Origin: Cenococcum geophilum
Lineage: Eukaryota
Length of the DNA stretch: 64,000 nucleotides
Direction: 5' to 3'
NCBI GenBank assembly: GCA_050273025.1
Contig: CP158635.1
Location: 11,780,001-11,844,000 of the forward strand
In this document: one piece after another, positions 1-26,100 of the stretch
How positions within the stretch are numbered: the first letter of the stretch is position 1
How the letters are laid out: each line of letters starts with the position of its first letter
Made by a program: the position numbers and the translations under genes
The notes under the pieces: model-generated
Told to the model about the DNA's origin: nothing
What the model saw: the letters and a program-made list of their open reading frames with translations, nothing else
Databases searched by the model: none

Positions 1-215
1 AAGAAGGAGAAGAAGAAGGAGAAGAAAAAGAAAAAGAAGGAAAAGAAAAGGAAGAAAAAGAAAAAGGAAAAAAAGAAGAAGGAAAAGGAGAAGGAAAAAA
101 AGAGGAAGGAAAAGAAAAAGAAGAAAAAGGAGGAGGTAAAGAAGAAAAAGAATAAAGAGAAGAAGAAGAAAAAGAAAAATAAGAAGAAGAAAAAAAAAAA
201 TAGGGAAAAGGAAAG
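1..215. repeat. Purine-rich (AAG/GAA/GAG)n low-complexity tract
   Basis: Almost exclusively A/G with triplet periodicity (aagaaggagaagaagaaggagaag...). Confidence 0.9.
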
Positions 216-1729
216 AATAAATCTAAGTAAGTTCTAGTATAGTAGTATTAAAGTAGTTCTAATATTAATAGGGTATAGAGATTCTAAAATCGTATTATAA
301 GACGCTAAAGAAATGTTAAAAGGGTTTCTTAATAGTTTAGGGGAGTATAAATATCTAGAGGATAGTATATTAAAAATGCTAAAAGGAGGGCTTAATAAAT
401 TATATATAGAGATAAAAAGAGATATAAAAATAGATAAAAAGAGAAGAAATTAAATGCTAGTAAAAATTAAAGTAATAAAAAAGGAAATAGATATTAACGC
501 GGAACTATAGTACTAGCTAGTCTAGTATTATTAAATAGAAATTAATTAATAATCTTTTAAGCCAAATTTTATTATTTTCTACTTATCTCCTCTAAGAAAG
601 AAGAATAGCTCTAGAAGTAAAAGTTAGCTAAAAGATAGTAATATAGAGGAGATAATATTCGCGAAGTTTATTTTACGTAAGAATTATCTTATAAATTAGA
701 CGCCCTATAGTAAAATTCGGTTATAGGGCAGGGAAAGTATATATATACGGCTATCCCCTATAAAGTAGAGAATTTGTTAGTAAGGAGCGGTTAGTTTATA
801 AGAACTTAGCAAACCTTAGCTTCGCTAAGACCCCTAACCTTTACCTTAAAGGGCCTTATTTTCTTCTTATTCTTATCTTTTCTTATACCACACCTCCCCC
901 TCTTCTTATTACTTATTACCGTCGTATTAAAATATATTCGCCCCTTAGCGCTAATATATATATAAGTATCCATTTTATATCTTTAACTAATAATTAATGT
1001 AGTTAATTACGGCCTTTCCTTTAGCCTCTTCTAACTCTAGCCTTTAGTATTAGCAACTTTCCAACGCTTATTAAGTTCTTTTAGTACTACCTCTATCCTC
1101 TTAGCGCGTATATATCCTTATAATTCCACTTTCTCTTTTACCTCTCTTTTTTTAATTCCTAATTAAGACTACTCCGTAGTCATTTATATGCCCTTCCTAG
1201 GTAGGGATAGATAGGCGTACCGCCTCGCCCCGCCTTCTTTACTAAGTTAAGTATACGTTATATAATTTAATTACGCGCTCTTTTCCCCTAGGATGCATTA
1301 TATAGAGCCAATAGCTTTAGCGTCTGCTAATAGTTAAAGCCGCCTATATTATAAGGATATACTACTAGGTTACTTAGTAGAAACCTAGCTAAATATCTAA
1401 GCGGCTATACCCTACTAGGCTATTAGAACTAGACCTCGTAAGTAGTATTTTAGGTAGCTATATACGTATACCTATCTGCCTATATAGTTATATTAAAACG
1501 GGTATTTTAAGGACGCCGTGCGGTCTATAGGCTTAGGCGTAAAGGACTATCTAGCTACCTTACCACTTATAAGACGTTTAAGCGGTAAAGGTTTAGTCTT
1601 TTAGGTCAGAGTATATAACTGCAAAGGATTAATACCAGCCAGTCTATATTAGGAGGGTAAGTATTACGCAGTATTCTATACCGCCTATTACTAATATATC
1701 TAGGTTATTTAATAGAGCCTTACTTACTA

Positions 1730-2105
1730 CGCAGCAGGTCTAGATTACTTAGTATAGCTAACAGACGTACTAGTAATAAAGTAATTAGTATTAGAGGGTC
1801 CTGCTTACCGCTAGTAGGTTACTTAATTATATAGGCGGTAGGCGTACTAGTGATAAAGCAATTAGCATTTAAGAGCTTCGCTCGCTACTAGTAGATCTAA
1901 ATTACTTAATAATGCGGGAGGGTAGGCGTATTAGTGGTAGAGGGGTTAATAGGGAGCTACTAGTATACTTAAATTATTTAATAATTATATATGTAGTAGG
2001 CGTCTTAGAGTAAAAGCCCTACTTACTACTAGTAGGTCTAGATTACTTAATGCGGGCGGTAGGCGTATTAGAGTAGTTAGTATTAAGGGGCTCCGCTCAC
2101 TACTA
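1730..2105 (+). repeat. Degenerate ~70-80 bp tandem repeats, probably within a RIPped cargo gene
   Basis: Recurring ggcggtaggcgta(c/t)tag, gctccgct/gcttcgct and gtaggtctagattacttaa motifs. Confidence 0.6.
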
Positions 2106-2699
2106 ATAAGAATACTATCTCCTTTTATTATAGATATTTAGCAATATATACGCATATTAGGCTTTATATCTAGCTAATAATTAATATAAGAGATTAATTC
2201 TATTAGGTTAGAGTAGACATATTAGCGCTGCTATTTATTAAGAAATACCGATATAACGGCCTTATTAGAGCTAAATATTCTAGCTATGTAGGCGGGGCGC
2301 TATTCTAACCGTAATTTGCTAAAGGTATTAATCAGGCAGCAGGTCTAGGCCATTTTAGACCTTTACCCCGCAAATAGTATATATTAGATACCTTAGCTAG
2401 TTAAGAAGTCTAGGCTATAGGCGAAAGCTAGCGGTAAAGGCAGGACTAGCGCGTATTTTAAAATCCTATAATTCCCCTTAAGCAACAGCGACAAATACTG
2501 TTTCTCTTTAGAAATTTCATTTAATTAATTTCTATACTACTACTTAAGAAAAGCTAAAAGCCCCTTACCAGTATTATATAACCTATAGCCCTAATAATAA
2601 GCGCGGGTATATTTTAGAGGAAGTCTAATAGACCTCATTTTTACCTAAAAGATAATCCTAAGGCGTATTAAGCTTTACTACTCTTAGGTACTCCGCTCT

Positions 2700-4250
2700 A
2701 TATAGGGCCTTAATTTAAATATTCCGCCTAATAAAGCATCTATAGATTCCGAATACAATTATAAGAAAAATAATAATAAGGATAACGGGGATAGCGAGGA
2801 TAAAGATATCTGCGATGCGAGTAGCAGTAGGGGAAGTAGTTAAGGTAATTCATCCTAGCACTTTCCTATTATTTTCTAGTATCTATATATATCTAATAAG
2901 TAGTAGCGGATCCAATAGTTATTAAAGATAGCGTAGCTAACTTAGACCTAAAAGCTAAAGATTATAGAAATAATAGCAGCGATAATAATGATAAGTTACC
3001 CTTATTAGAAGCGTTAGAAGAGCTCTCCTATATACCTACACGTAGCTATATTAAACCTATATTACTAGATAGCAATAACCTAGCTAACGGCCGTTATAAT
3101 GGAACCACTCTATAGCTTAGTTAGGAACCTATAATATTAGTCGCTAGTTAAGAGTCTTTAGGAGCTAAAAGAGTAGAGGGCACTAGTAAGTTATAAAGAC
3201 TGCGATTACTATAACCTTAGACTAATAAATATAAATATAGATAACCTATTAGCTAATAAGGGTGGGCGTAAGAAGATAAACTTAAGAAGTATATTATTAA
3301 CATTAAAGAAGCGGAGACTTAATTAGCTTAAGTAACTAAAAAATATTAATTATAGCTCTAATAATTCCAAGAACCTTAGGCCCACAAAGTAACAAAAATT
3401 ACCCTCCTATAAAACCTTTCCTCCTAGTCCTATCCTTAACCTTTACGACTATACTAACGACCGGGCGGCCTCCGCTGCGCGACCTACTAGCCCTTCCCTT
3501 TAGCACTTCTCTCCCTGTAATACTACACCACCCTATAATAAGGTTAATAACTATCTAAATTAAGTTCTCTATAATCCTACTAACGATTTAACTAAAGCTA
3601 AAAACTATAATAATGGTAGTGGCGATATAAATAATAAAGGCGAGGGTAATAATATCTATAAGTATATAGTGCAACTGTCGACGCCTATCGGCAGTTAGTT
3701 AAACTTAAAGCGCGCTGTAAAGTATCGTCTTCAGTAGACTTACCATTCCCCATCTATATATAAGTTATCCCCTACACATAATTGCCGCACCTAAAAACCG
3801 CTATTAAACTCCGCTTCTAATTCTAATGCTAATCTAAAAGAACTATTATTCCTAGTTGTTTTAGGGCGTAAGAAAAACGGGTCTTATATTATAGAAGTTC
3901 CTTTAAATAACCTTCCTTAATTATTAAACTCTGCCTCTAATCCTGAAGTAAGACTAAGAGCTACGTTAAATACTAGAGAATGGTTATTCCTAGTAGTCCT
4001 TAGGTGCGAAAAAAATAGATCCTATATTATAGAAATTCCCCTAAACGACCTTCCCTACTTATTAGGCGGTCTCTAGAGCTAAATCCTAGAAATAAGTTAA
4101 AAGAGGAATAGAGTTATAGGATTAAAGACCGCGTTCTAAAACGACGTCTTAGATTAGTATAGATGCGTTATTACTTAAAGTTAGGGGCCCGGCTACTATA
4201 AGTTTCAGTCCTTTCCCTTTAGAGCCACCCCTTACTTTGCCTTTAGTATT
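2700..4250 (+). pseudogene. RIPped hypothetical cargo gene, acidic/low-complexity, with internal duplication
   Basis: Reads DSSDDDDELPSLEALEEL near 2975-3025; GT..AG introns near 2844-2903 and 3186-3240; duplicated EWSF-x-VVL...ITEVPLNDLP unit at 3803-4064. Boundaries approximate. Confidence 0.4.
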
Positions 4251-4690
4251 ACTTTACTACTACCCTTAATAATTTATTAGGAAATATAGTTATTATTATT
4301 AATAAAATATAGTTATTTATTTAAGTTTTTGGTACTAACCTCTAAGTATAAAGTAATGTATTTCTCTATTGTAGTAGTAAATAAAGTAAAAAATAGTATA
4401 TTAAATGTCTGTAAAGAATACCCTTAGCTCTATATTGCTAATCTATATCTTTATTATTAATGCTAAAAGCTATCTATAATTTAGATATAATTAATTTTAG
4501 AGGAAGATATAATTAAGGGGACTTATTAGTAAAAGGATTTAATAGGGCTGATTTCCGGACCCTATCTATAAGGTATTAGTTCCTTACATTTAAGAGCTAT
4601 ATAAGGTTGTCTTTAAGGATAAATTTTATACTAAAAATATATTAAATGCTAAGCGTAAATACTAGCGGAATAATATTCCTAGAGCACTTT

Positions 4691-4910
4691 TTTTAGAGTA
4701 TAGGTTATTCTAGAGTATAGGTTATTTTAAAGTATAGGTTATTTTAGAGCACGGGTTATTCTAGAACATGGGTTATTTTAGAGTATAGGTTATTCTAGAG
4801 TACGGGTTATTCTAGAGTATAGGTTATTCTAGAGTATAGGTTATTTTAGAGTATAGGTTATTTTAAAGTACGGGTTATTTTAAAGCATAGGTTATTCTAG
4901 AGTATGGCTT
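4691..4910 (+). repeat. 17-bp tandem array, ~13 copies (TTCTAGAGTATAGGTTA variants)
   Basis: Directly visible; copies differ essentially by C/T and G/A transitions; inverted partial copies at 4968-4979 and 4982-5000. Confidence 0.95.
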
Positions 4911-5189
4911 TAAATCCCCTACGGGATTTTAATAAATAGGGGAAAATATTCCTTACGCTTAAATTTGCCGTGCTTTAGAGTAAGCCATACTCTAAAATAT
5001 TTTTACTAAGGTTATTTATAGCTTAGCCTAATTTATTACAAAAATAAATAGATATTTATTCTTAATATAATTTTATATAAATAAGATTTAATACACCCAT
5101 TTTATAATAAATATGAATTTTAAAGATAGAAATAATATAGGTAAATTGCTATAGACATTTTTATAACTATTAGAGTTGTGTTTACTTTT

Positions 5190-8100
5190 GCGTAGTATCT
5201 TTTAGGGAACTAAAACGTCTTTTTAAGGAAACCTCCGCTATATAATAGCGAGAGTAAGTAACTAATTTAGGTATACTATGATTAGAAACACTAAAAGGAG
5301 TATTAAGTTGTTATTGCCGAATAAACTAGAATATACTTTACGGAAACCCACTAATTCTAATACGAATATCTTTGTCTACTTTAAGGTATATTATAATAGT
5401 TTTAGAAGGGTATCTTATATAAAACACTACTGGTTTCCTAAACCTTAGGCATAAGGTATAAACACCTTAAGCACCCTTAAAGGTCGCTAGGGTGACTAAA
5501 TTAGTAACGAATTCTATTACTAAAGGGAATATGCGACCAATCGTGTTAGTAATTGCGCTAATTTGGTTTCGGCAGCGAATTAATCCCTTATATTTATAAA
5601 ATCCTGCATTAAATTTTAGGGCGTAGTCTAGCTTAAAAAAAAAGGATAAAGCTAAGAGTAATAGGACCAATCTTTGACGCTCCGCAGCTCCGTAAGGCTA
5701 CATCTATACTATCTCCCGCAGCTTAGCTATAATTAAAGTATTATTAATAGCTATCGATTTCTCTAGCTTTACGTTAAAACGAAAGTAGTTCGCTTTTGAA
5801 TTGTCGTCTAAGTGTGTAGTAAGATCCCTTTATATTCTTTCGCTATTAAAAGAAGAAAGCTATAATTAATAGAGTCTCGGAATAAACCCATTGTTAAAGA
5901 TATGCCTAAAATGTGGAGCTTGAGGTGACTGGCTCTCTATAGTGCCAGTTCTAAGAGATAGGACTATATTAGCCCTATAGTCTTTAGACTAAATATAACG
6001 ACTCTCGCAAAGTCTAAGGCTTATTGGATTATTATACTTTAATCCCCTATCTTAAAAGGCGCTAAATGATTTTAGTTCTATAGCCCGGAATAATCTTATT
6101 AATTAATTAGTAGGTAGTAAAAGAGAAGATTAAAGGGCTTTAAATATATATACTGGGGCGGTAGAGGTAGCCCTAGCACTGTTTAGTGATTAGCGTAAGA
6201 AGCCTAGTTTATTAAAGGTTAACTTACGCTTACTAGACGTACAGAATCTCTTTAATACCGTTCTCTTTTGGTTTAGTGTGCTTATAGCCTACTAGAAGCC
6301 TTAGTTATATTATTTACTTTACTAGTATTGTTATTAGATAAACCACTTATCTTCTCTACGGAAGGGTTATAATTAGAAAATAAGAAAGGTGCTACGTCTA
6401 AGATATTGGTAGCTGTTACGGCTACCTTTATACCTAAGTAAGCCGAAGCTATTAGATCTATTAAGCGTCTTATTAGCCCAAAGATATTTTTAAAGTATTT
6501 TTCTAAAGCCGTAGCGTCGTACCGACCGTCCGAAAGCTATGTATAGAGATAACCGCGTAAACGCGAGAGGAATGACTTAGATGTAGGCCTTTAGCTTTTA
6601 AAAAATTGCGTAAGGGTTTAGTTAAATGTTTCGCTATACTGGGCAACGTTCTATTTATAAAGAAATATAAGTAAGGCTTCTAGGCCGCCTATTTTTATAA
6701 GCGCCGTATTAGATAATAGATAGATTACTTACCGGAGCTTGTGCCGATAACTATATTAAAGAAGTCCTGGATAACGCAGGACCTAAGTAAATTTTAGGTT
6801 TGTAAGAGGAACTCTAAAGGTATTACGCCTCTTATGCCACTACCGTTAATTCTAAGGATACGGATACCATAAGTAGGCGGCTTTAGCTTTGCAGTTAAAG
6901 AGCCTGTGGATAAAACTGCTTTGTAGAGAATATAGGCATTAATAGTGTATTTATACTCTGCTCCTATTACTACATCGCTAAATATTTAAACGTAGATGTT
7001 GTAAATAGTATGGCCGCAATTAAGCATATACTAAGGAGTTTGAAAGCAATAGAATAGGTATATCTTATTTGTTTTAATATAGGCCTAATATAGACAAATA
7101 TCTAGAGCTTAGGCTTTTGCAAAAGGTATATTTTATAATAATTTGAAAAGACTATAGATATGCTTTTCAGCTTGGCGGCTCTAATACTCTTTTATACTTT
7201 TGTTAAAGACTTCTAATAACGTATAAATAAATGCAGATTGATATAGTAAACGGTAAATTTGCCTTAGTGCAAAATCTAGTAAAATAGTTAGTTAAAAGAA
7301 ATGGTATAAAGAAGGTGACTTTACTATATACTTGTGGAGGATATATATTTATTAAAATACTTAATATAACGAACTTAGTAATGTCTTTATAAAGGATCTT
7401 CCCCTCCCTCTTAAGCCTTATAATGGTTTTTATATAACTACTAAGATCCTTATATATATAATACTTTCGAGTTGCTTAAATAATATTAAAGGGCTCTATG
7501 GCGGTTGTGGCTGTATATAGTAGCGCTGCCTAATAGAGCGTATTGAGGTGATGTGTAGTAAATAATCGGTATTTAAGCCGTAAATAATATCTAATCTCGT
7601 TGACTTATCTTAGTATTTCCTCCTTTAAAGGCCTATAGCCTACTAGAGGAGATAGAGAGCCGTCTATCTTAAGCGCGGCAATTTGCGAGAAAATCTTTAT
7701 AGTGTAAGTACTTATACAAACGGCTCTAGCTTCCGTTATATTCTTTTATAAAGAAATAATAATTAAACTAGGGCTGGTCCTTAGGAGGACACCTACGTAA
7801 CTGCTAATATTAGCCCATTGTTTAAAAAAGGTAGAAATTTGTTTAATAGAATTAAAGTTATTAATAAATACGGTAAGAACTATAATAAAAGGTAGTACGA
7901 TATAAGCAAATATAGCGTTAATAACTAACTGTCCGCTAGGGGGCTGCCAAGCCACTATATAAGTAGTGCTCTTATAGTAGGACGTAGGCGCTAGGTAAGA
8001 TGGGATAGCGCTAGTAAAATCGCCGTCTATAAAGATAATTAGGTTGTTATACGCTGTTAAAGATATATTAATTCGGATATTTAAGACTCCCTTAGAGCTA

Positions 8101-8330
8101 TGCCTCTTAAAGTTATTATATAGAAATAGCTGCTGCAAAGTAATGTTTTTACTTCTTTTGCCTAGGAATAGAAGTAAACTCAGCGTCTGTAAAGCAGAGT
8201 TCGGTAAGGCTTAAATAATATGGCCTAGCTAAGAAGTATTATTAATTATAAAGCTAGTGGATCCAGCCACTTATAGCTATATAGCGTGGTTTTTACAAAA
8301 TATAATTATTAAGTAGAAGAGAATTTATTA
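5190..8330 (-). pseudogene. Patatin-like phospholipase (Starship PLP type), RIPped
   Basis: Minus strand: GIRIL-x-IDGGGVRGVIPLEFL (~6870-6805), IQDFFD..IGTSSG nucleophile elbow (~6773-6730), ARATSAAP (~6178-6153), FQDGGLKHNNP (~6058-6025). Track ORFs 5467..5670 and 7746..8138 are fragments. Ends approximate. Confidence 0.85.
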
Positions 8331-8948: not shown

Positions 8949-11340
8949 ATAGATTCTAAGTTAGAGCGCGACTTATCTCTCTTTAATAAGAAATAGAGTT
9001 ACTTTTATAGGGATATAAAGATCCGCTTATTATTTCTAAAGTTTAAGGACTAGAAGGTTAAAGAAGCTCGGACCCTTAATTGGGAAAACGTTCTCCAACT
9101 TATTAACATCTTTAAGATAGAAGGCTGCTACCGCTTAGAGCTGGAACACTATATATTAGCTCTAATTAGTTAAGAGACCCTTAATAAAGGTCTATATAAG
9201 TCTAACTTAATATAGGTAGGTCTTTTAGACTGTTAAAGCGAGCCGCTAGAACTACTGCTTGATAATAACTCTATAGTAGTTTGCTTATATAGTTAACATT
9301 GTATTAAAGTAGGTAAAGCTTACCTTGTCTTAAGGGAAAAGTAGTAGGTTATAAGGTTGTATCTTAATAGTAAGTTAACCTAAGGTATAGAATAACGTAA
9401 TCTAAAACCAATCTATAAAGGCCTTTTATTGAGTTATATCTTAGAACTTTGAATGGAATATTTAAATAAACGCCTATTTTGCGACGGCGATATATTTCGA
9501 CACCTTTGATATTTCTAGCGTCGCGTAAATCTTATATAAGAAAATAAATAGCTTTTTAGGCTTTCTAAAAGCAAAAAAAAGGATATTAAAAAACTGCTTA
9601 AAAAAATGCCGTGTCTCCGCAATGTATTTAATAACCTTTTTCTACTTATTAGGCTTTGGCCGGCACTTTAGCTGGGCACTTTATATTATATCCTTATTTT
9701 AAAATGCGATGAGGTAATTATAATAATTAAAGCCGGCTAAAATTTATAACTAACATTGTATAGGAGCTCATTTACTATCTTAACTATATTTATAGTTTAT
9801 AGTTATATATACTTAACAATAACAAAGCCCTTATACCTCTCTTAGATTCTTGTATAGTTTTTCTTATTAAGCTTTTTATTCCCCGAGGTTCATTATATAA
9901 TAGATTAGAGATTGAAAATCTTATAAAGGATAGTTAACTCTTCTTAGCCGTTATTTCTTATTAAGTATAAAGTGGAATCTTAGAGCGCCTAAAGAATTTC
10001 CTAGGACAAATTCCTTCTCTATATACATTTTTTAAGGATATAAAATATCTTAAACCGTGCTCTAAGGTGGTTAAAAGACTTCTACTAAATAAATTTAAAG
10101 GTATAGTATAGATAGCTATAGGACGAGCCTATCTAGGATTAAATTAAGGCCAAATAAGTATATAAACAGTAGAAAGCGTTTACACTATAGAAGAAAGTAA
10201 TTTAAAGGAATTAAACTTTAGGCTCGGCTACCTGTAAATTTAGCTTTTTGCTATACGACACTTTCCTTAACTTACTAGTATAATACCCCAGAAGGACCTC
10301 AGTAAGCCTAAACTAGAGGTTAAGCTATATAATATATTATAGGAATAGCTAGGATTCCTTATATAAAGACTAGGCTTTAGCTTTAATAAGATTACTTAGT
10401 TAATATATATAAATTATATAGAGAATATAATAGAAGACTTCCTTAGTATAACTTACCTTGGAACTCTCTCTAAGCTTAAGCTAAGTCTTATACTTTAGCA
10501 AGTGTAGCGGATTTGTTAAATAATTAGAGATATACTAAGTCGCTATCCTTATATAAGTTTCCCATTTCTTATAAATAACTCTATTTGTTAGCTAAAAATA
10601 CACTAATATAGTCGACCGTTTAAACAATCCCATATTACTAATAGGAAATATTTATTTATTAAAAATATAAACAGTTAGCAGCCTATTTAGGTAAAGCAAT
10701 ATACCTTAATATTTTATATTAAGCGAGATATATTCTATGCTTTTTTTAGGGTTTCCGATAAACCTTTAAAGCCGCTTATTTAAAGACTAAGCGGTAGGCC
10801 ACTAGGTACTCTCTTAAACCCTAACTTAGAGCCTCCCTTAAGCTCTAACTTAGGAGCCTTAGGCCCTAGCATAGGGAACCCCTTAGGTTGTGATATGAAG
10901 AATATAACGAACCCCAAGTTAGAAGCTAGTTAAAGGCCAACTACTAATATACCCTTAAGCGAGAACGACCTAATACCCTTACCCGATAACTCTACGTTCT
11001 TAGAAATGATTTAGGAAAAGCTAATTATTCTATATCTTTATACAAATCGCAGGCTTTATATATTCTTAGCGTTATCTTTAAGATTTAAATCCACTTTAGT
11101 GGATTTAGTGAATACTAGGCATAATTTTTTTATTGCCAATAGAGAGCGTTTTAAGTAGATAGGTGTGGGAGGTATAGGGGAGATAAAAAAAGGGTTGGTC
11201 TTTATGGGGGATACGAATAGGCTAGGGGGAAATACTTAGTCCTTAAATCCAATTCCCGATGAAACAGCCTATAAGATACGCCGAATCTCTTATTTTATTT
11301 AAAGTGGAGATAATATAAATACTCTACTGCGTTAATGGCC
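8949..11340 (+). pseudogene. DUF3723 family protein, RIPped
   Basis: LDWENVLRLIDIFKIEGCYRLEPEHHISALI (~9075-9170), CLHGQHRIEAG..WWVVRLYLD (~9282-9370), FCDGDIFRHL (~9477-9507), LVGLWPALQLGTLH (~9645-9690); introns with GTAAG/GTAAT donors. 3' end approximate. Confidence 0.85.
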
Positions 11341-11516: not shown

Positions 11517-12650
11517 ATGTCTTTATAAAGACGGGTTACTAAATTCCTAGCATATAAAAAAAACGCTGAAATGATTAAACCTACTGCGAATAAGGATTAG
11601 AATCGGCCTAATATACTTATAAAATAAAAGTACATTTATAAGCGCAAGCGTATACCGTTCTATATTCTACTTAAAGTTAATAAAGATTTAGGGCTCTTCT
11701 TATTATTATTTACTACTAATAGTAAAAAAACCGCTCTACTATTAAAGGAACTAGAGACCCTTATAGTCTTAGGAAGTCCATAGAACTACTACCGCAAATT
11801 GCTTAAAGAAGATTAGGCAGGACCTGTAGTTATTACCTTTAAAATAGAGCCAACTTTCCCTATTATAGTTATTAAAATAAGAGTAATAAGTAAGACAGTA
11901 AACGGTTTAGAATGCTCAAAGTTACCTCACCTTAATATTATCAATATTCTAGAAGTATTTAAAGAGGGCAAAATGGTATATCTAATATACGAGTGCCTGT
12001 CTGTATCGTTAGCAGATATCTAGGCCAGCCCTTCTAAAACATTAGTAGAGTTTGAAATTGCTATAGTCTATAAGGAGGTAATATAGCTATTCTATTTAAA
12101 ACCAGCCTCTAATTTTAAATATAGGTAATCTAAGGACTTCTATTTATCTATAGCATTTATGTTATTTATGGCTTATTAAATTGCCAAAATCTCCTAATTT
12201 TAAGGAGTAGGGAAATTAAGATTAGTAAGTACCTAACGGTTATTCTAAAATAAAAAGCTAACGGTTAAGTAGTAAATATAGGTAAAAGTATACTTTAAGC
12301 GGCTTTTTATTCGGAGGATATTAATATAAAGGCTATTAGCTATATTATAATGCAATTAATAGAGCCCGGAACGGTTTTATAGTAACTAATTAGCCTTACT
12401 CTATAAAACCTAGAACGCTGGTCAGATATAGCTTAGGACTTCCTTAATGGAACCTCTTTACAGCCACTATTTTCTCTTAGTGAAGTATAGTTTCTAGGTT
12501 TTATCTCTTATTATGGGTTTAACGGTATAGTAGGACAAGTTTTTACTTAAATCACCGGGCCCGTCGTGCCTAATCCTATATATTTAGGTAGCTAAAAGGA
12601 TAATAAGGCGGAAGTGGAAGATATTTCCGGCCTTATTCTAACTTTAGATA
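11517..12650 (+). pseudogene. Protein kinase-like (possibly pseudokinase) gene, RIPped
   Basis: H-x-NIINILEVF..YLIYECLSVSLADI (~11928-12020), EFEIAIVCKE, IQGLLFIHS..HGSLNCQNLLI..GEIKI (~12128-12225); several short introns. Confidence 0.7.
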
Positions 12651-12939
12651 CAGCGCTAAATTAGTTAGTTATAGTATAACGCATATAGACGCTAGAATTA
12701 GTTAAGATATAACTTAGCATACCTAAAATGTTATAGGGGGTATTAGAGCGGCTAATGCATAAGATATATAAGTTTTCACTCTTCCCACTTTTTAATAACT
12801 AAGCCCTATTATTAATAGCTATACATTAATTAAGAACTTTTATAATCCTTCCACTAGTTATATTGCATATTACTATATAAGCTAGCGTCCAATCTTAATA
12901 AATCTACTTAACTAACTAGCCGCTATAGCTACATCCTAT

Positions 12940-13490: not shown

Positions 13491-13612
13491 CTTAATTAAA
13501 GATGCGTTAAATAGCTAAAAGTACAACTTATAGAAACACGCCTCGGGTTTAATCTAGATAAAGCCGTAGCTCGTCTTTTACTTAGCTAGCAGCTTACTTA
13601 TTTACGCTAAAT

Positions 13613-13712
13613 GCTTACCTAGCTTACCCTAGGCGCTTACCCTAGGCGCTTATTTAGCTTACCCTAGGCGCTTATTTAGCTTACCCTAAGCGCTTACCTA
13701 GCTTATACTAGA
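13613..13712 (+). repeat. Short tandem repeat (GCTTACCCTAGGC / GCTTATTTA units)
   Basis: Directly visible, ~9 sub-units beginning GCTTA. Confidence 0.85.
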
Positions 13713-14099
13713 CACCTTAAGTCGCCTGGTAGCCTTTATAATAGCCTATACCCTAGTCCTTTTTTTGCTATATAGCTTAGGAACTTTTAAAAGTTCTATA
13801 TAAGAAATAACTTCACTAAGATCTATATACTTCCCTACCTTGCCTACAATGTCTTATTGTCGGCAACTCTCTATATTAGAGACGTTGATACTAAACCTAC
13901 TTAAAGAACACATCTGTAAATATTAGTACTGCACACCTATACTTAAAAAGAGGTGCTTTATTAGCTAGCAACTAATTTATAATACTGTTAATATAGTATA
14001 TAAGGGATTGGACGGTTAAATATATAGTAATGTAAAAGAGGACAATATGCTAGTGTGGGTAGAGTTACCGCCAAAGTATTTTATTGTTTGTAGAGTACT

Positions 14100-16671
14100 T
14101 TAGTTAAATACTTTAGCTAGGAATTAGATAGCGCTAAGAGATATAACTCTACTAAAGGCCTGCGACTAAATAGAGCTAAGTTATTAAGATATAGCATTAG
14201 TTGGTTAAAAAAAGGTGTATTTTGTTTTATAGATACTAGGGTATAACTACAAACGGTTGCTACTGTATTGCCTCTTCAATATTAGACATATTAGGCCCCT
14301 TAGCATCCTTAGTCTTCTTTACCTTCTCCGTCAACTAAGCATAATAGTGGACTTATAAACTTACCTAGGTTTGATCTAGGAATTCCTTTACAATATCCTT
14401 TTACCGGACGTTATTGCTCCTTAATAGAATTAGCTTGTTGTTATCCTTTTTTATAAATGCTTATCTTGTTTATTAGGGTAAACCTAATAATTAAGAAGAT
14501 GCGGGCGAACGGGAACCCAATAATGCGCGTGAATAGGAAATTGGTTTTTGGGATAATACGGGTCGAGGGCTTCCGTGTAATAAGGTTGGATGGTTTTTTA
14601 TAGGTAAGAGGTACTGGTCGTATATTCAATTCCTAACGGTAATAGTTCCAGCCTAAGTTAAACATCCTTATATAATTATTAGCTCTACTAAAAAGCGAGG
14701 AGATAGAGTGTTAGGTAATAAATAAAGCTTAGCATTTATTAGGTATTATAAAGTCGTCTCCTTAGAATAGATTAAAGGGTTAAGCTCGGCGAACTTCTTT
14801 AACTATAGTTCTCGCTTTATTTTAGGAGGATTGTTATTATTAAATCCAACTATAGTCCCCGGGCTACTGCATTCTAGTAAATTAAGACTATCGGTCTTAC
14901 TATTGGGATTAAAGGCGGGATAATTAAGACTTTCGCTCCGTATATTCGTAAGGGCCTTTATAAAGTTATTAATATACAGTTTATAGGTTAGGGTGGGGAT
15001 TAGGGTCCTTAGGCCTAACCTATAGCATTAAATATATAATTGGGGCTTATAGTCCTAGACTCTAATATAGAATGCATTCTAGTAAATAAAAGATATATAC
15101 TATAAGGGGGTAATGCTTAAAAACTGCTAGCGAAAGCAGAAGCTTTATATCTTATAATCTGGGGTAATAGTTTGGAATCGCCTTTTTAGGGCTCGCTAAT
15201 GCAGATAGACTTACTAGATGCTATATACAGCCTCTAGCCACTAATACTTATACTTTAGAGATAAGCATATTAGTGGCGACGTTTATTATTTAAGTAAAAT
15301 ATTATAGAGGTAAAGGCGCTATATACTGGGTTCAAATTCAATTTTATATACTGTAGTCTATTATATAGTTTAAGTGTCCCTTAGACTTAGCGCTCTAGCT
15401 CACAAATCTACTATTAAGTTAATATTTATATAGTGTGCGCTAGTGGCGGATAGGTAGCGACTAGAGTCTTATAGATGCTTCTAGCTCTATATATTAGGTC
15501 GCCTATATACCTAAAAGTTGGCAATATATAAATAAAGGATGCCGTGTCCGTAGTGGTAAGCGGAGCTCTCTAGTGTAACCGCTATAGGATTAACTCGCCT
15601 ACCGCCTACTTTATTATCATATAATTAGACTTAATAGTGGCGGGCAGGGCTCTCTAGAGATCGCTATATAACCAACGCGCCTACTACCCACTTTATTGTC
15701 GTATAGTTAGGCCTAGTAGTATTAAGCGGAGCTCTTTAGTATAATCACTGTATTACTAATACGTCTGCCACCTACTTAATTATTGTCACCTAATTAAGCC
15801 TGCTGCCTTGAGATTCTTTAAGGACTTACTCTGCTATTAGAGAGACTCTATTGCACTAAAACTTAGCTATCTTATAGCTTATTAGCTCGTAAACTAGTTT
15901 AGATTCTAGCCTTAATACACTAGCTATTAACCCCACTCGCCTTAATATAATAAGATATAGGATCTGCCGTAACCTAGGAGAAAATTCTTATCTTAGCGCC
16001 TTATAGCACTATTATAGCGATTTAGCCAACGGCCTTAGGCATAAGATGGCTTTAAGGGGTTGCTTAAACTTTGCTATTTTATTTTATAGTCTATAGTAAA
16101 AACGGGTTATCCGTACTTACTCCCTAACACTCCCTATACTATATAGTAGTACTACTATTAAGAGGTCTAGATTATATAATTACCATGCCTATAGGGAGAC
16201 TTTGCTTAGGCTTTATCCTTACAGCTTATAATACGTTAAGTAGCTCCGCTCGCTAATATAGGCGTATAATTTAAGACGCTAAAGTAATTAGAAGATAATG
16301 CTGTCCGATTTAAAAGTTAAATCGCGCTACTAACCTAGGTTTTTCGCTGCATGACCATCTTAAGTAGGGAAAGCGCTGGCGTAACGGTGGTGTGTAAAGC
16401 TAAACGCTAGAGTTACTCACCGTAATGAGGATCCTGTAAGTTAATCCTTATAGATTATTAAACGGCGGCTTAATTAGCCGTGGTGGCCCAAAATATAATT
16501 ACCTAATCCTGTTAGTTATAAAGGACTAACTTGCTAATATATACTAAGCTAAAAGATATAAGGCAATTTATATCGCTAGTTAGGGCTCTATCTTACCTAA
16601 CGTAGAGGATTTTAGTAAAGCCCTTTAAGCATTACACGTTACTATAAGGAAGGAATGTTTAAGCTTACCAT
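14100..16671 (-). pseudogene. Multi-intron hypothetical cargo gene, RIPped, with ~78-bp tandem repeats
   Basis: ATG at 16671, short exons bounded by GTAAG/GTGAG/GTTAG donors, CxxC-like motifs after RIP reversal (CGECQ, GGSCISC), repeats at 15545-15810. 3' extent uncertain; may be two genes. Confidence 0.4.
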
Positions 16672-17654
16672 AGTTAAAGGCGTAGTAATATCTTTTATGT
16701 TATTAGCAGCAGTATTTAAATTAAAATAAAGGGGTGTAGTTTATACGTAGTTTTACTATTAAAGGATATCTAGAACTATAGAAGGAATAGAAAAGGACTA
16801 GCGGTATAGGTAGTATAGACGGTATAAAACTGCGGGAGAGGAATAGTAGTTAAAACTAGAAATAAAACGGCGATAGAAACTATGCTTTTATAGGCGACGT
16901 TAACGTATAGGCCTTTAAAAGCGGCGGTGTTCGCCTATAAATTTATAGTTCTTATTTACTTAGGGGCAAATACTTGAAAAAATATTACTTTTAACCTAGG
17001 GTTTTAATAACTAGTAGTCCTAACACAATATAATTTCTGTTAAGAAGGGCTTAATAAATTGCTATATCCCCAATTTATATAGGGCCACGTTTTGTTTACT
17101 TATGGAAAAATGAAGCTTATAAAAGGTACTAAGTATTTCTAGAGTAGGCCTATACCTATATAAGGAAACTAGATTCTAAAAGCCATTTTGAAAAGCCTTC
17201 CTTCTACATTTTCTGCCTAATGTTCTTAAATATCACGCCGTACTTAACCCGTTTAAATTTAAGCTACGCAAGACTATACGGTAATCTCGATAACTAGCCA
17301 GGCTTTTGCTATAGTTTTTGCTAATATCTTTACTATGTTTCTTTGCGATTACCTAAAAGAAATTATCTATTAGCCACATTTATTGGGCATCTTTTTTAGG
17401 TCTTATAGTATTTTATACACTAAGCTTTTACTATATATTGGAGATTAGTATACTTATAGTAAACTTGGATATAATCGCACATCTAGTGGCGTATAAATGA
17501 GTAGGAATAATATATTAACTACGGAACAGTTCGCTTGCCCTATACTGTTTTACATACGTTTTAACTAAGGCTACTACCTAGCCTTCGCCGCCTAAATCTC
17601 TGTAAAACTTTACTTATGTATAGAAGAGCATAAGATAATAAAATATTATTCTAT

Positions 17655-20051
17655 CTACTCTACTAGTACCTTTAGATCCTTCCTTACTTCCTAAAGCACC
17701 TCCTTTATTTAAGAAGGAAGTTTTTTATCCTTTTCCTTTTGCCTCCTACCGCCTAAAAATACTACCTTCCGTAATCTGTTGACCTAAGGGATTAGTGGCT
17801 AATAGTACGGTGAAAAGTTATCGTCTGCACTTTTAAGAAAATCCCCTTTATTATCCACTTCTCCTTTCTTTATCTTAGCTAGCTCTTCCGTATTTATAGA
17901 ATTCCACTTATTAAACCTATTAACAACGTTGCCTTTCTTATTAGGTCTATTATAGTAAATGTATATCCAGAATAGCACCTAAAAGAACGACTTAAGATTA
18001 TGCCAAGCTAAGTATATCTTGCCTAGGAGCACTCTAATCGCCATAAACGCTCTTATACCGGTCTTGCCCCGCGCTCCTAAAGGCCCTTCTTACTACTCCT
18101 TAATTGCAAGATTAAAGTCGATTAAGAATGCCGGCTAAGAAGGATTATTGTCTTCCTTATTTATTATAAGGTTGCCTATTAAAATATTATATTAGATAAT
18201 GCCGGCCCGCGTATATAAAGACTTATATCCTTTAATACTACCCTTTAGTATAGTAAGCATTGTAGCCTAAGAGCTTGCCTTGTAAAGAGGCTTTCCGTAG
18301 TCCCTAGTAATAATATATTAATATACTCAATTTAAGGTTATAGGGTACCTTTCGCCTTTAGGTAGAGAGCCTAAATATATGCGCTTGCTAGGCGGTAATG
18401 GGGTATTAGTATAGCTAGACGACCTCTTTCTGCTAGAACTTTAGCCTTTTTTGATTTTTACTCTAGCCGGTTTTAGAGGCATTATTAAGTTTTCTGGCTT
18501 ATAGTTTATCGCTCTTGTAATATCTAGCCCCTTACGGACGTTATTGTAAATATTATCTTCTTTACCGCCTATATAAACTGTCTTGTAGTGATAGTACCTG
18601 GCTACGTTAACTACTTCTTTCTCCATTACCTTATATAGCAGTTTACCTTCTTCCTTACATTATAGGTACTGCTATAAGTCTTTAATAACAAGGGGTATCT
18701 TAGAGGTATCCCCCTTACGGTATACTTTCTAGCAAGTAGTTACTTAACTGGCGATACAGCGTGCCCACTTTATAGATTTGTTAAGGATGAGATACTTAGT
18801 CTAATTATTGCGTACGACCTTAATATATTGTTTACTGTCTAATGTTAAAATAGTAGGGTTAAACCTAAGCTGCTCCTTATTTATTTAGAGAAATCCTAAT
18901 ATTACTAAGGTAAATTATAGTCCGTCTTTATTAATATTAAATAGTAATAATATAATGCCTCCTACCCGGTTATACTCCTATAGCCGTATAATAGATTTAT
19001 AGAGGGTAAAGCCTAAGATAAAGCGACGAGTGTCTTAAGCGGTAAAGACTTCTCTTATATATTTCCCTAAATTAAACCATACCTATAAGGGTATATTAGA
19101 GTTTAGATTACTCTTTAGCTCTTTTAGTATAAGTATATATAACTAATAGTATTAAGAGCTTTTGCTAGCTATTGGATTATCTATAAAACTAATATCTAGT
19201 TTTCGCTTTGCTATAGACCCTTATAAGGGCTGCTTAGTATATGTGATAAGCGTTTATTATATCTTTGGGGCGGACCCGTGCTCCTCTATAAAGCCTAAAA
19301 TTAATTTAATTAGGCTACTAAACCACTCTAGGATATTATCTTGCTCTATACTTTTAGGCCAGTTACGCCAGCCGCCCTTGGCGTATAGTAGATTATTCCC
19401 TTCCTTACATTTCTTAAAAACAGCAGCGCTTACCTCTTTAAGACCTTTTACTCCTTTAAAGAATGCTTTATAAAAGCCAGGAATCCCTATATAAAAAGGG
19501 CCTAGCTCCTCCTTTAGAATATAATCTACGTATTCCCTACATTTAGACGAGTTAGTAAAGCTGCTTATATTGCGTAAATATGGGGTTTATTAAATATGGA
19601 GTGGTAGCAGTTAGGGGGGAGGCGTAGACTCTATTATAGTGGTAATAGTATTACTCTAAACGTCCTTATCTAATTCGCGATTAATAACTGTTTTTAGGAG
19701 AGGGGTAAACTATTTAATATTAAAGTCGTTAGAATTAACTAAAGGGAGGAGTTAAAAAAGGTTACTATGAAGAGTGCCGCGGCCAGCGCTAGACGGGAGT
19801 AGTTAAGCAGTGAGAAGGTTTTATAATGCCAGGATAAGGTCGACTATAAGATTTTTAAGCCCTATATATGTTAGAAAGAACCTATAACAGATAAATTAAT
19901 AATTACCTTTATTGCCTATCTAGCGTAACAAGTCTAGAGAGCTAGGGATGCCTAGATCCTAATAAGTTAAGTTAAATAAATTAAGAAAGCTATTTAGTCC
20001 TTCCCTAATAGGGTTTATTTTAATTATCTCTAATTTAAAGAGATTTGCCAT
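17655..20051 (-). pseudogene. FunK1 (fungal protein kinase family) gene, RIPped
   Basis: ATG at 20051; QDTRRFVLGFTLCGSIMRLWEYDRVGGI (~19040-18955), GIIQCDIS.GNLMM..AFLIDFDLAI (~18207-18100), KTGTRAFMAIGVL, HDLESFFWVLFWICIHY (~18003-17955). Confidence 0.9.
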
Positions 20052-20582: not shown

Positions 20583-23101
20583 CTAGGAAAAGGTCCTATA
20601 TACACTAAGCGCATAGTTTTAAAAATGCATTTTATACTTAAGGGTCACTTCGCAAACGTTATATCTAATCTTACCCTACTATAGGAGTTTGGAGAGATAA
20701 CTGCCTTAGAAATGTTTTATAACAGCAGCTGGAGTATAGAACTTATATATATGCTTACTAATTGCGAGCTTTTTATTCCCGAGGCAGATAAAGCATATTT
20801 TTAGTCTTTTCTCCTTATATAAGGATAACCTTGCCCTTTTTAGCGCTTTAGCCGCTTCTAAAATCTCAGTATCTTCTTTAATCTTAACTTGGCCAAGGGC
20901 GACATCTATTCTAGACTGTCTCTGGCAATGACTTGGCCGGTACGCTCTGCCCTCCTTAATATTACAGTAATCTACGACCGCATTAATGGCATTATTGTAT
21001 CTACGTATTTTATCTTCTAGTGATATACTAGGTAGCGTTATAATTACTTTAATAAGGCGTTTGTATTCGACCAATCTATTATTACTAGATTTTAAGGTTA
21101 CTTTAATATCCTCGCTAAATATAACCCCGGAAAGTTGCCGCTTAATATCAATTATAGCTTATTCGTTATCCTAATTCTTCTTAATATTTTTTAATAGCGC
21201 ATTTCTCTAACGTTGCCTTTTATTTATGATTTCTCGGCTAAGCTTTTAGTATTCTGTACTTTCTATAGTTTTGCGCTTAAGGCTAAGCTTTAGCTTATTT
21301 TAAACTTTAATTAAGGAACAAATACGCAGGTTCTCGTTTACCGATAAGGATTATTCTATTATTAGGTGCTGTGGCCGCCACAGGTCAATTGATTAGCTTA
21401 TTTAGTATACTACTTTTATTAACTTTTCTTAAGGCTCTAAGCCTTAAATGATTACCTATATATCTACACCAATACGCCGCGGAAGGTAGTGCTTTAGGAA
21501 TGTTTAAGTGTTGGTATGCTATATTATCAGGTTTTGGAGGGCGTTACTTACATTACCTAGGTAGTATAGGCGTTAGAAAGGTTTTAGTAGAACTAGCTCT
21601 ATATAATAAAACTTACTATTTTTGTTAAATGCCTTACCTGCGCCGTAATGGAGACTATATAGGCGCGCAACTTGCTAAAATCCCGTAATTGCGCCAAGGT
21701 CCTTAATCTAGGGCAAAAGAGTTAAGTATAGTAAAGGCTCGTTGAGTAAGACCTTATGGCCGTAGGGGGTTTTAATTAATTGCTAAAATATAGGGATATT
21801 ATCTAGGTTTAAACGGAGTAGTAGCGGTAACTTGTTACGCCTAGGCTTAATATATAGCTTACTAAGCTACTCTATAGACGTTAGATTAGGAGGTGCAAAA
21901 GCTTAGTCAGTAAAGAGAAGGCCTAGGAAAAAGACGTAAGGGCTAAGAATAAGTAAAGGGTTGAAGATAATCTCAGGAATTGGGAAAGTATTACTAGTTC
22001 TCTATAAGCATAAGGTAAGAGGAATAAGGTAGAAAGAGAATATACGCTTCTTTTATACTAAGATATTCCTTAGTGAATTTAAATATAAACTTAAGCATGA
22101 TCTTGTAAGGCCCGCCTTTTAGGTCGCGAATAAATATAACTATTATATATTAGTAGCATAGATTAAGAAGAGCTTTAGGTTGGCTTATAGTGCAAAAGCC
22201 TAGCTATAGTAAGAAATGGACTTGTATCCGATGTCGCCTAACTATATATCTTTTTCTTGTTATAACTAAGTTGGTCTTAAGAACTAGGGCGAGATCCTCT
22301 GCGTTTATAATAGGCTTTTCTCGCTTCTTATTACTTAAGCCATGTTTCTTTACTAGTTTCCGAAGTACCTAGAAAAGATATTTTAGCTCCGCCTTACTTT
22401 ACTAGGCTAAAGGGTTAACTAGGAATGTAATTACCTTATATATCTAGCGGGTTAATTTACTAGCAATTTTCCTATTAGTTACTCTCTTATATATAAGGCG
22501 ATAGTACTTCTAGTATATACTAAGCGAGCTAGAAAGCTTTATCCCGTACTATTTCCTACTCCCCTTCCCTTATTTCTAATTTAGGAGCCAGTTAAAAAAG
22601 CTATAAAGTAGCCGAAGCGAGAGGACTTAGTACATTTTCTTAGGGTCTTTCCTTATATAGGTGTAGTATCTAGAAATAGTTAGCTCTAGGTTAAGCCTAA
22701 GAGAAAGCCGCAGAATAGGTTATTACTTACTAATACTATTAATCTTTAATGCGGTCAAGGAGATTCGTACTACTATTAGCGTAGTCCTACGTCGTAAAAT
22801 TAGATTCCTTAAACTCTTCTAACTATTTAAGGTAGTATTTTAGTAGATAATCTTAATCCTTATAAAGCTATACTTAAGCGGGCGCTTCGTAAGCATTGTT
22901 AGATTTAGCGATACTATTAGCGTTATAGTTAATGCCACTATCGGCATCGCAGTCGGCGTTACTATCGGCATTACTGTCGGTATTACTGTTAAAGACGGTT
23001 AGTTCTGTCCTGTAGCTGTTACCGTCGCTATCTATATCTATATACTTATTATCGGTGACGCTAGACAATAAGCTATAATCTAATAATTAAGCGCGCCGTA
23101 T
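20583..23101 (-). pseudogene. DUF3435 tyrosine recombinase (Starship captain) with C-terminal C2H2 zinc fingers, RIPped
   Basis: LLPWIKDLGAITGF.QVARPYSLRYGAGKAFN (~21720-21623), intron, NVSDALQNLIMQHANTRTFLKHYLPRRIG (~21555-21468), C-terminal KICFICLGN..KHF..CDVC..HKMHFQNHA..H; acidic N-terminus (ORF 22874..23068). Confidence 0.9.
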
Positions 23102-26100
23102 TCTAGGGAGCTAGAAGAGAACTTAGGGTAATGGCGGCGGGAGGGACCTAGAGGGTAATAACGGCGGGAAGGATCTAAAGAGCAATATGGGGTTAAGGAG
23201 ATGGGGGGGTAGAGAATAAGAGAAACGGGGCCTAGATTAAACGGATTAGAGGTAGGAGCTATAGAGTTATATAGCTTTAGCGCCAGGCGCGTGGAAGATT
23301 ATAGTCTACCTATTAAAAAGCAAGGGCATAGGGCGGTAAGCGAGAGGCTTAACGTTAGACCGGCAAGCAGGAGGCTTAGGGCGGCGGGGAGTTTTAGCGA
23401 CGTAACTTCTAAAAACGGCGACAGAACCCTCCAAAACCGGCAGTTAGATCTCCATTTTCTTTTTTAAAAGAGGAAAACTTATAAAAGGGATATATTAGAC
23501 TATTATAGTTATTAGCGGGTTATCTAGTACTATTTATACTAAAGAAGAATAGTAAACTTAGGCTATATATTAACTATAGATAGTTAAACAGCATTACTTA
23601 GAAGGATAGGTATCCTTTACCCTTAATTAGCAAAATCTAAAATAGGATAGGTAATATATAAATCTTTATAAAGATAGATCTAAGATAGGCATACCATTAG
23701 ATTAGAATTAAGGAAGGCAATAAATAGAAGGCAGCCTTTAGGTTAAAGGAAGGACTATATAAACCATTAGTTATGCAATTTAGGCTTATAAATACACTAG
23801 TAACATTCTAAAAGCGTATTAACAATATATTAAAAGAACACTTAGATAAATTTGTTATAGTATACCTTAGCGTCTTAGAAGGAATATATAGGAAGCTAGT
23901 TCCCCTCTAGAGAAGAACTAGCAATTAGTCTCTAAATAGAAGTGGTTAGAAGTATTTATCCTTTAATATATAAAAACTTATTCTACCTTCTACTTACCTT
24001 TAATATACCTTTAACTTACCTTCTACTTACTAGTAATACTATTAATTAGATAATTATACGTTCTAGTTAAGCTAGCTTCTTATAATTCTAATTACTTATA
24101 ATCCGTTAGGAACGTATAGCTATTAATTAACAATAACGGACTATACTCCTATACCCTATAAAGCAACGCCCTTACCGCAAGAGGCTTAGAGAGTCTCCTT
24201 AGAGGAGCGCATTCCCTCTACTTATAAAAGAGTAGACTAAGAAGCCACGGCTAGTCCGTCTAACTTTGCAAGACCTTTAGGAATAATTACCGCGGGGGAA
24301 TTATTAGAGAGGTCGCTATATAAGACCCTATAAAAAACAAAGGAGTTAGAGATACAATTAAGATAAGTATATTAAAACTACTAAGAATAATTGTAAGGAC
24401 AATTAGGGGAAGTATAGACACCCTAAACACAAAGCGGACTTAAAGGGGTAACGCTATACTACGCTGTGACGTTAAAAAAACCTAAATTTCGCATAAAGGA
24501 ACTTAATAAGTACTATAGTGATAGTCTCCGGAACTATAATTGTTTTATCCGTTAATGCAAAACTAAGTTTTAGCTAGATTTAAAACGTTACTCTAATAAG
24601 TATAATTAGATATTAATTGCTTCTACCTTTCTACGTGGCACCGTTAAGAGTTTATAGATACGCTACGAGAAGAAACTTACTACACCCTTTAAATTTAGCG
24701 AACTTAGGACCTGGTTAGTTAATCAGGTCTAAGACCCTACTAATTAAGGGATAGACTATAACTAGCGATACCACAACGCCAAATAGCGGGATGGTTAGAC
24801 TATAGTCCAGTTTATAAACTACTTAGAAGAACTAAAAGACAATATACCCTACTTAAATCTATAGGATAACGCTATATAACTTTACTAGCTACTTATTAAG
24901 CTATAACCTAAGATTTAATAGGCTATATAAGAGAAGGGCAAAATTCCTACCTTTTAAGAAAAGCTTATCTCTAAAGCTACTTGGATTAAGAATACTAAAA
25001 GAGACTATCTAGGTAAGCGAAAGGAATAAGACGCTGACGATAAAGAGCGTAGGACTAGATCTAGCTTTAATAATAGAGGCAGATTCTAACCTAACTACTC
25101 TACAGAAGGATAACGTAAGTAGGCCTTACAGCCCTAGAGCAACGCTAATTAACTCTAAAATAATAATAGGTAGAGACTCAATCCGCAGAAGGGGAACTAG
25201 AAGACACGTACCTATTATAACTGTAGTAAGAAGGGCTATATAAGCCGCTTTTGCTAATAAAAGAAGTAAGAGTTAGCCTAATTAGGAAAAGAGACAGCCT
25301 AGTAAATCTTTACTCCCTTATACTAGGCTAGCAAGAAAAGGAGGGAGTAGACTACCGTATGGTTATTCCTGTCTCTATTTAAGTTAATAATAAATAGGTA
25401 ACGTAAGACTGCCTTATAGACAGCGGCGCGAGTATAGGGTTTATTTTTTAATTACTAGTAAAAGAATTAGATTTGGACCTTAGTGGCTTATAGGTGCGCA
25501 CTATTTAAAGTATTAGAGGCTACTAGATTCCGTGCTATAGGGAATAAACGTTTTCTATTACTAGCTAGGACTATAACGGTCTATAGAACACGTAGGAAAT
25601 ACGCTTCTGCGCCGCAGAAATTAAAGGGTATAACCTTATTTTAGGATACCTATAGCTTCGCCAAGTTAACCCAGATATTAATTGGCCTTTAGCCTCGTAT
25701 TAACACCAAAAGTCTTAATCACGCATTATAATTAAGGATTAAGAGACTTTCCTAAGCCATATATAAGAAGAAGGGTGGGCATATACTATATATGCCACTC
25801 TTAACCCCAAGAATAAAGATATAGGGTAGTTATTTTCGGATATCCGGCTATATACAGTTAAGGAACTAGAGATTCTATAGAAATATACGGACCTAGAAGA
25901 GGTTTCTAATAAAGAGGCTATATAAACCTTACTTAACCCTATATTAGTTAAGCATAAGATAGATATAGGGGACAAGCAACCTTCTTTTAGACTACTATAT
26001 AACTTGTTAGAAAATAAGCTAGCTATATTACGTTAGTATATAGTAGATAATCTTTAGAAAGGATAGATTTGGCCCTCTATAAGCCTAGCAGGGGCACCAA

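Follow-up and report, generated by a model that had tools for sequence, protein, structure and literature searches.

A probable member of a multi-copy Starship-like family, inactivated by RIP, in the genome of Cenococcum geophilum

The stretch of DNA considered here, further called the window, comprises 64,000 nucleotides of the genome of Cenococcum geophilum (assembly GCA_050273025.1, contig CP158635.1, positions 11,780,001 to 11,844,000 of the forward strand), and all coordinates are counted from its first letter. Its left part carries the remains of a DUF3435 tyrosine recombinase (the captain of Starship elements), of a FunK1 (Pkinase_fungal) kinase, of a DUF3723 gene and of a patatin-like gene (PLP), all of them corrupted by repeat-induced point mutation (RIP); we assume, with a probability of roughly 0.72, that the segment at ~5.2–23.47 kb is one dead copy, inactivated by RIP, from a multi-copy family of Starship-like elements of an ascomycete. 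An earlier inspection of the letters alone (the original prediction) had assigned the whole interval 1..23469 to a RIP-killed Starship and stated that no open reading frame (ORF) survives in it. The latter was readily reproduced: within 231–23469 the longest ORF starting with ATG encodes 62 amino acids (aa) and the longest run free of stops comprises 154 codons. Since no ORF survived, all frames were translated, stop codons were read as X, and these read-through translations were scanned against Pfam. Coordinates of the features found are collected in Table 1.

For the captain, three pieces on the minus strand together cover positions 2–418 of the 418 positions of the profile PF11917, which is the match expected from a DUF3435-type recombinase: 22299–22024 (profile 2–93, E 3.5e-12), 21995–21618 (86–211, E 5.3e-52 for the frame) and 21557–20967 (212–418, E 2.3e-48). 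The homologues listed are 27 DUF3435 proteins of 784–872 aa from Histoplasma, Blastomyces, Emmonsia, Penicillium and Aspergillus, with 25–32% identity (the best at E 5.5e-55 and 32%). Aligned by tblastn, residues 95–802 of the intact homologues fell on 22671–20586, and matches to the window were confined to 20–22 kb, leaving it without a second captain. Acidic N-termini of the same proteins matched weakly up to 23080 (E 0.004–0.02 in a 1.2-kb database). Because N-terminal matches reach this position, the start of the captain can be placed ~360–390 bp inside 23470, with the gene facing inward. Its frame changes at least twice without a clear intron, and stops were counted as 19 per 343 and 2 per 92 codons in two of the pieces. 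GC-rich GGCGGCGGG-type motifs were registered upstream of the captain (23125–23178 and 23372–23388) and between it and FunK1 (20091–20105); they are immune to RIP because of their sequence context.

The FunK1 gene, located directly behind the captain, is preserved in its full length: the profile PF17667 is matched at positions 2–386 of 387 with E 2.2e-77, and the 797-aa homologue P0034 aligns by all its residues (1–797) to 20051–17658 in one frame, ungapped, at 56% identity, even though the translation contains 34 stops per 703 codons. Homologues numbered 578 at E<=0.001, the best of them reaching E 5.2e-257 with 57% identity and 100% cover, and the best 120 of the 578 being 44–57% identical to the RIP-damaged translation. 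Those with names come from Dothideomycetes, Lecanoromycetes, Sordariomycetes, Eurotiomycetes and Leotiomycetes. Many of the homologues P0034–P0153, which span at least five ascomycete classes, lie on short contigs; such a patchy yet conserved distribution of the subfamily would suit a gene carried on mobile DNA.

Two further genes stand head to head on the left. The DUF3723 gene was detected by the profile PF12520 in two frames, at 9126–9719 (profile 1–181, E 2.4e-24, 14 stops per 198 codons) and at 9761–10747 (profile 179–507, E 3.9e-42, 22 stops per 329 codons). For its neighbour no direct Pfam match to the Patatin domain was obtained in any frame, and the patatin identity follows from its HMMER homologues, from their PF01734 domains and from the tblastn alignment. 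A GxGxRG-type motif at 6827–6850 is followed there by GTSSG; the stretch bearing both motifs retrieved 486 library proteins at E<=0.001 (best 7.3e-22), and PF01734 was present in all 10 homologues scanned, with 9 exceeding the curated cut-off. Residues 3–938 of the 951-aa homologue P0154 aligned to 8297–7338, 7273–6731, 6689–6366 and 6180–5206 (E 7e-125), and either short introns or shifts of frame may account for the gaps in between. Searched by phmmer against PDB, the first piece gave just patatin and CapV at E 0.1–0.28 and the second piece gave no match; a word-based query made of the frame's N-terminal 536 codons likewise retrieved no homologue.

Between the DUF3723 gene and FunK1 there is little to recognise. 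The kinase-like fragment at 11817..12080 had seven matches in PDB, five of which are protein kinases (E 0.5–0.9) and the two best of which are not, and FunK1 homologues gave no match at this place. Six-frame translation of 12001–17702 matched no Pfam family at E<=1. An 82-bp tandem repeat (2.3 copies, 15550–15739) was noticed in this gene-free part. To the left of the patatin-like gene, the stretch 231–5205 showed no Pfam match at E<=0.1 and may lie outside the element; ~300 bp past the 3′ end of the gene it contains an array of a 17-bp unit (4694–4905, 12.5 copies, 85% matches, found by Tandem Repeats Finder, TRF). Rfam scanning detected no tRNA, 5S or other RNA gene in the window, and hence a target site of this type was not seen.

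Thus, the gene content read from the letters alone was essentially correct. Profiles of DUF3435, DUF3723 and Pkinase_fungal all matched the read-through translations with the E-values given above. Patatin was recovered through homologues rather than by its own profile, FunK1 was confirmed and the additional kinase near 11.8–12.1 kb (Pkinase E 0.13) was not, and the suggested intron-containing structure retained a possible basis in the gaps of the patatin-like gene only, FunK1 being ungapped in one frame and the captain showing frame changes.

Table 1. Features of the window, in order of position.
Feature	Position	Strand	Remarks
Purine-only (AAG/AAAAAG)n microsatellite	1–230		TRF periods 15, 21, 27; sequence type changes at ~230
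More heavily RIP-mutated DNA without recognisable gene	231..5205	.	with 17-bp tandem array
Patatin-like (PLP) pseudogene	5206..8297	-	~950 codons, aligned in four pieces; head to head with DUF3723
DUF3723 pseudogene	9126..10747	+	PF12520; two frames, 9126–9719 and 9761–10747
Kinase-like fragment (subdomain IV-V-like)	11817..12080	+	Pkinase E 0.13; weak, unconfirmed
RIP-mutated DNA without recognisable gene	12726..17657	.	a genomic repeat, at the lower of the two levels
FunK1 (Pkinase_fungal) pseudogene, full-length	17658..20051	-	PF17667; single frame, no intron; directly downstream of captain
DUF3435 tyrosine-recombinase (captain) pseudogene	20590..23080	-	PF11917; ~830 codons, at least 3 frames, many stops
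Captain 5′ upstream region	23081..23470	-	richer in G+C; 27-bp tandem duplication 23125–23178; related GGCGGCGGG-type motifs
Sharp junction	23470..23471	.	captain upstream region meets unrelated, far more abundant repeat cut off on its left side
Nested Gypsy-type long terminal repeat (LTR) retrotransposon	28428–34772	+	192-bp LTRs (179 matches, 13 transitions, 0 transversions); inside 217-bp pair

The dinucleotide signature of RIP marks three AT-rich blocks (GC 25–40%) of this fungal window, 1–43000, 49000–56000 and 58000–64000. Across the first of them, in every 1-kb bin, TpA/ApT was high (1.36–2.1) and (CpA+TpG)/(ApC+GpT) was low (0.20–0.68), as is typical of RIP-mutated DNA, while the comparison stretch at 43–47 kb gave 0.75–0.95 and 1.23–1.55, respectively. 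In the middle of the 23-kb region the indices are as strong as at its edges. The second index is 0.32 in 231–5205 versus 0.48–0.53 in 5206–23470, and the shift near 5.2 kb is gradual and not sharp enough to fix the left end of the element. The whole 23 kb is therefore RIP-mutated, strongly and throughout, as had been claimed, only the signature is not confined to 1..23469: it extends to ~43 kb through the debris of LTR retrotransposons.

Copies of the region were sought in public contigs. The share of sampled words of 13500–23499 found was 0.61 for runs X1–X4 (one sample), 0.47 for X5 and 0.22–0.23 for X6 and X7, all of these runs bearing one species label or a related one; the values of 0.15–0.18 in 13 runs (two labelled as root metagenomes) and of 0.00–0.03 in X21–X24 were given no weight. 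Contigs of X1, X5, X6 and X22 (34707, 33119, 30585 and 7586, respectively) were then aligned to 10000–29999 at no less than 88% identity, most of them being 90–95% alike.

These contigs clarified the nature of the right-hand boundary. The repeat that starts exactly at 23471 has a second copy at 63895–64000 (94 matches, 11 transitions, 1 transversion). Among the contigs lying on 23471 onward, 17 in X1 and 14 in X6 have before this point a different, mutually similar sequence, and its consensus matches 63865–63894. The abundant repeat is consequently truncated at 23471 in this copy, and the sharp boundary is real. Summed contig depth of X1 rises here from 2579 to 138926 between adjacent bins. 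This discontinuity, situated 360–390 bp upstream of the captain start, is a candidate element terminus, and an inward-facing DUF3435 gene ~370 bp from a sharp boundary is exactly what the original prediction had described.

At places where contigs of X1 differ, 2559 transitions were counted versus 80 transversions (~97% transitions), and the other runs behaved alike. Since variant contigs exist and their differences are transitions almost exclusively, the region is a repeat whose copies differ by RIP-type C:G to T:A changes. The largest number of distinct contigs carrying at one site a letter other than that of the window was 9, 7 and 9 in X1, X5 and X6 for 23 listed sites in 11.0–17.5 kb, and 26, 23 and 25 for 13 listed sites in 18.5–22.7 kb; at position 24077 it was 58, 62 and 57. 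Summed word depth of X1, a value not to be taken for a copy number, was 218–437 over 10000–17336 versus 2579–8138 over 17337–23339, with the individual depth of eight listed contigs amounting to 10–43 each. At single sites it was 337 at 17363, 208 at 17469 and 5545 at 18570, which puts the step between 17469 and ~17800, at the stop codon of FunK1 (17658). The genome thus contains several copies of the left part and clearly more copies of the captain+FunK1 block, perhaps on the order of a hundred. In X22, 0–4 variant contigs per listed site were found in 10000–23339 and none at 13 listed sites in 12423–17469, the cover being low and giving no proof of absence. Two contigs of X1 join 20528 or 20688 to the start of the Gypsy LTR (28428/28435), which means that other copies of the block have their own, independent nested insertions. 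The genes, which had been described as single-copy-looking, are such inside the window and are repeats in the genome, so that the duplication deduced earlier from the density of RIP was confirmed by the contigs.

A region with a DUF3435 gene and accessory genes (DUF3723, FRE, PLP and/or NLR) but without target-site duplications (TSDs) has been designated a “Starship-like region” (Gluck-Thaler et al. 2022, PMC9156397). In our case DUF3435, DUF3723 and PLP are co-located within 18 kb and no TSD was found, and for this reason we use the term “Starship-like” and not Starship in the strict sense; of the predicted identity, the characteristic set of genes stood and strict membership could not be demonstrated. 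Upstream boundaries of Starships are located within 2–7 kb of the captain start (PMC11162782), and the position of the present captain would fit this rule if the junction at 23470/23471 is the terminus of the element itself. FunK1, DUF3723 and the patatin-like gene all lie downstream of the captain; variant counts and depth differ between this head and the rest.

Based on these data one can propose the following scheme. The captain, standing at the head and read inward from ~370 bp inside the right-hand junction, would cut and rejoin the ends of the element during movement. Captain-driven movement is established for Starships (PMC10104507), and by analogy the DUF3435 gene presumably had the same recombination role in this element; it is also supposed that 23470 is its true end and that the head and the cargo part move as one unit. 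Behind the captain follow FunK1, then ~7 kb of unrecognisable DNA with the weak kinase-like fragment, and then the head-to-head DUF3723/patatin-like pair, an auxiliary gene pair typical of Starships. Most probably the family spread first and was attacked by RIP afterwards: it multiplied in the species, the captain+FunK1 heads to a far greater number than the cargo part with its several copies, and the repeated copies would have been exposed in sexual cycles to RIP, which turns C into T at CpA in either strand. The outcome is dozens of stop codons in every gene and an inert copy within a RIP-mutated island of LTR-retrotransposon debris.

Several observations weigh against this scheme. Comparison of 17150–17650 with 23250–23480 revealed no terminal inverted or direct repeats above the shuffle level, the left end was not located, and no TSD and no empty site could be established. 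For the repeat truncated at 23471, the missing left half was not found in 1–23470, so that simple insertion of the element into this repeat is not demonstrated. FRE and NLR genes were not found in the stretch. As to the copies, X1, X5 and X6 are three runs of three samples, X1 possibly being the window's own sample, and summed contig depth does not measure copy number. Finally, the several-fold higher depth and number of variants in the block imply that most captain+FunK1 copies are unattached to this cargo at 88% identity or above, and the interval 1..23469, taken earlier for one element, is possibly not one unit, as the block at ~17.5–23.47 kb occurs in more variants and at greater depth than 10–17.5 kb.

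This last point opens the way for the strongest competing explanation, according to which two separate repeats are adjacent here: a compact, high-copy captain+FunK1 transposon of ~6 kb (~17.5–23.47 kb) and an unrelated, lower-copy remnant of a degraded Starship with DUF3723 and the patatin-like gene. Both the depth step, so close to the FunK1 stop codon, and the contrast of 26/23/25 variant contigs per site in the block with 9/7/9 to the left of it are what such an arrangement would produce, and captain-less regions with Starship cargo are indeed described (PMC9156397). Nevertheless, we consider it unlikely. The window has no other captain able to move the DUF3723/patatin part, these two genes are classic companions of captains, the block is not delimited by terminal repeats, and at ~17.5 kb the missing half of the flanking repeat was not found. 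A transposon of ~6 kb would also be far below the smallest Starship described (15,020 bp, PMC11162782). The second captain lacking in the window, the companion genes and the missing repeat half speak rather for one longer element, many relatives of which would have the head alone or a different load.

A related and equally tentative idea is that the ~6-kb captain+FunK1 block is a self-sufficient miniature Starship lineage, which, in a single species, grew to the order of a hundred copies until RIP killed it and had FunK1 as its standing partner. Partnership of this sort was looked for among relatives of the captain in metagenomes, where 20 loci were fetched, 11 had at least 4 kb downstream and 7 were distinct. 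FunK1 was found within 10 kb in none of the 7 and DUF3723 in one, and the pairing of captain and FunK1 is therefore not general; these relatives are only 31–41% identical to the RIP-damaged translation and tell little about the family itself. A search of main texts, supplementary cargo tables not included, found no paper combining DUF3435 with FunK1 or Starship with Pkinase_fungal.

Much less probable is a tyrosine-recombinase DNA transposon of the Crypton type, unrelated to Starships. In its size of ~6 kb and its high copy number the captain+FunK1 block is indeed closer to small DNA transposons than to the Starships described so far, but the recombinase matches the DUF3435 profile over positions 2–418 of 418, a DUF3723 and a patatin-like gene lie alongside, and DUF3435 captains are reported to form a clade of their own, apart from the recombinases of Crypton and DIRS elements (PMC9156397), the separation made here being given by this match together with that published statement. 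That accessory genes which never were duplicated suffered from RIP leaking out of adjacent repeats is hardly credible, because, even though nothing in 231–23469 is repeated inside the window and highly repeated LTR-element debris borders it, X1, X5 and X6 each supply several to ~26 distinct contigs per site with 88–99% identity, differing by transitions, and the RIP indices do not fade towards the middle of the 23 kb.

The surroundings of the Starship-like copy are those of a repeat island. To the right of 23471 only remains of retrotransposons were found. A pair of 217-bp direct repeats, 23868–24084 and 37582–37798 (195 matches, 22 transitions, 0 transversions), probably represents the LTRs of an outer element of 13.9 kb; in other copies contigs have a purine-rich tract before 23868. 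The Gypsy-type element nested between them retains RVP_2, RVT_1 and Integrase_H2C2 (the integrase zinc domain), and its summed contig depth is the second highest in 10000–29999, exceeded only by that of the bin 23340–24006. Another RIP-mutated Gypsy-type reverse transcriptase and RNase H is situated at 52546–54225 on the minus strand (RVT_1, E 7.8e-18; RT_RNaseH_2, E 3.2e-15). Two islands of normal composition, 43000–49000 and 56000–58000 (GC 45–53%), are free of the RIP signature and have no stop-free frame longer than 138 codons; their six longest ORFs gave no Pfam match. Short repeats connect 42857–43057 with 47595–47791.

If the segment is indeed a copy of one Starship-like family, it clearly exemplifies a Starship-type family whose multiplication went well beyond the usually reported low copy numbers and which was then silenced wholesale by RIP. 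It would thereby be relevant to the conflict of Starship mobility with genome defence that Urquhart et al. (PMC10104507) discuss. Relics of this kind escape gene callers and domain scans of ORFs entirely and are found only by read-through translation. The captain–FunK1 pairing offers a testable lead on lineage-specific expansion of FunK1: should FunK1 commonly ride captain-type elements, its patchy expansions in non-syntenic DNA would be explained. At the same time, RIP-killed Starship relics are already known as a kind, to which this locus adds another member, and its sole unusual point is the compact, higher-copy captain+FunK1 head; otherwise nothing sets it apart from ordinary dead transposons of repeat islands.

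With Starships and Starship-like regions (PMC9156397, PMC11162782) the element shares an outermost, inward-facing DUF3435 captain, here near a candidate boundary, and presumably the placement of cargo downstream of the captain's 3′ end. In the Starship Voyager, DUF3723 and PLP have consecutive locus tags (Table 2 of PMC9156397), and they are neighbours here too; an AT-rich setting, rich in transposable elements, is common to some Starship families and to this element. On the other hand, direct or inverted terminal repeats, the left end and the empty site are not shown for this element, FRE and NLR are missing from its recognised genes, and a FunK1 kinase stands directly behind its captain. Described Starships range from 15 to 511 kb (PMC11162782) and are expected in low copy number, and in Macrophomina phaseolina 0–5 copies were reported per isolate (PMC9156397). 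The present family, in contrast, is multi-copy, with up to 7–9 variants per site in the cargo part and 23–26 in the head, and summed depth points to far more.

The kinase has its own parallel in the FunK1 expansions of Onygenales (Desjardins et al. 2011, PMC3203195), which concern the same Pfam family, are lineage-specific and are enriched in non-syntenic regions. Such a location would fit travel with mobile DNA, as a lead only: in that paper FunK1 was not linked to transposons, and the link made here relates to one element family in one species. Persistence of auxiliary genes as decayed repeats is likewise known from “derelict”, or degraded, Starship regions (PMC9156397); these, as they are described there, have no DUF3435 gene, while in our case the dead captain is present. 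A further analogy is given by Hephaestus. Destruction of duplicated Starships by RIP was shown experimentally, and remnant Starships were called common (Urquhart et al. 2023, PMC10104507). RIP-inactivated copies of Hephaestus followed the same path, from duplication to RIP that destroys captain and cargo together. There RIP followed an experimental two-copy cross, whereas in the window the decay is old and heavy, with dozens of stops per gene, and concerns many copies.

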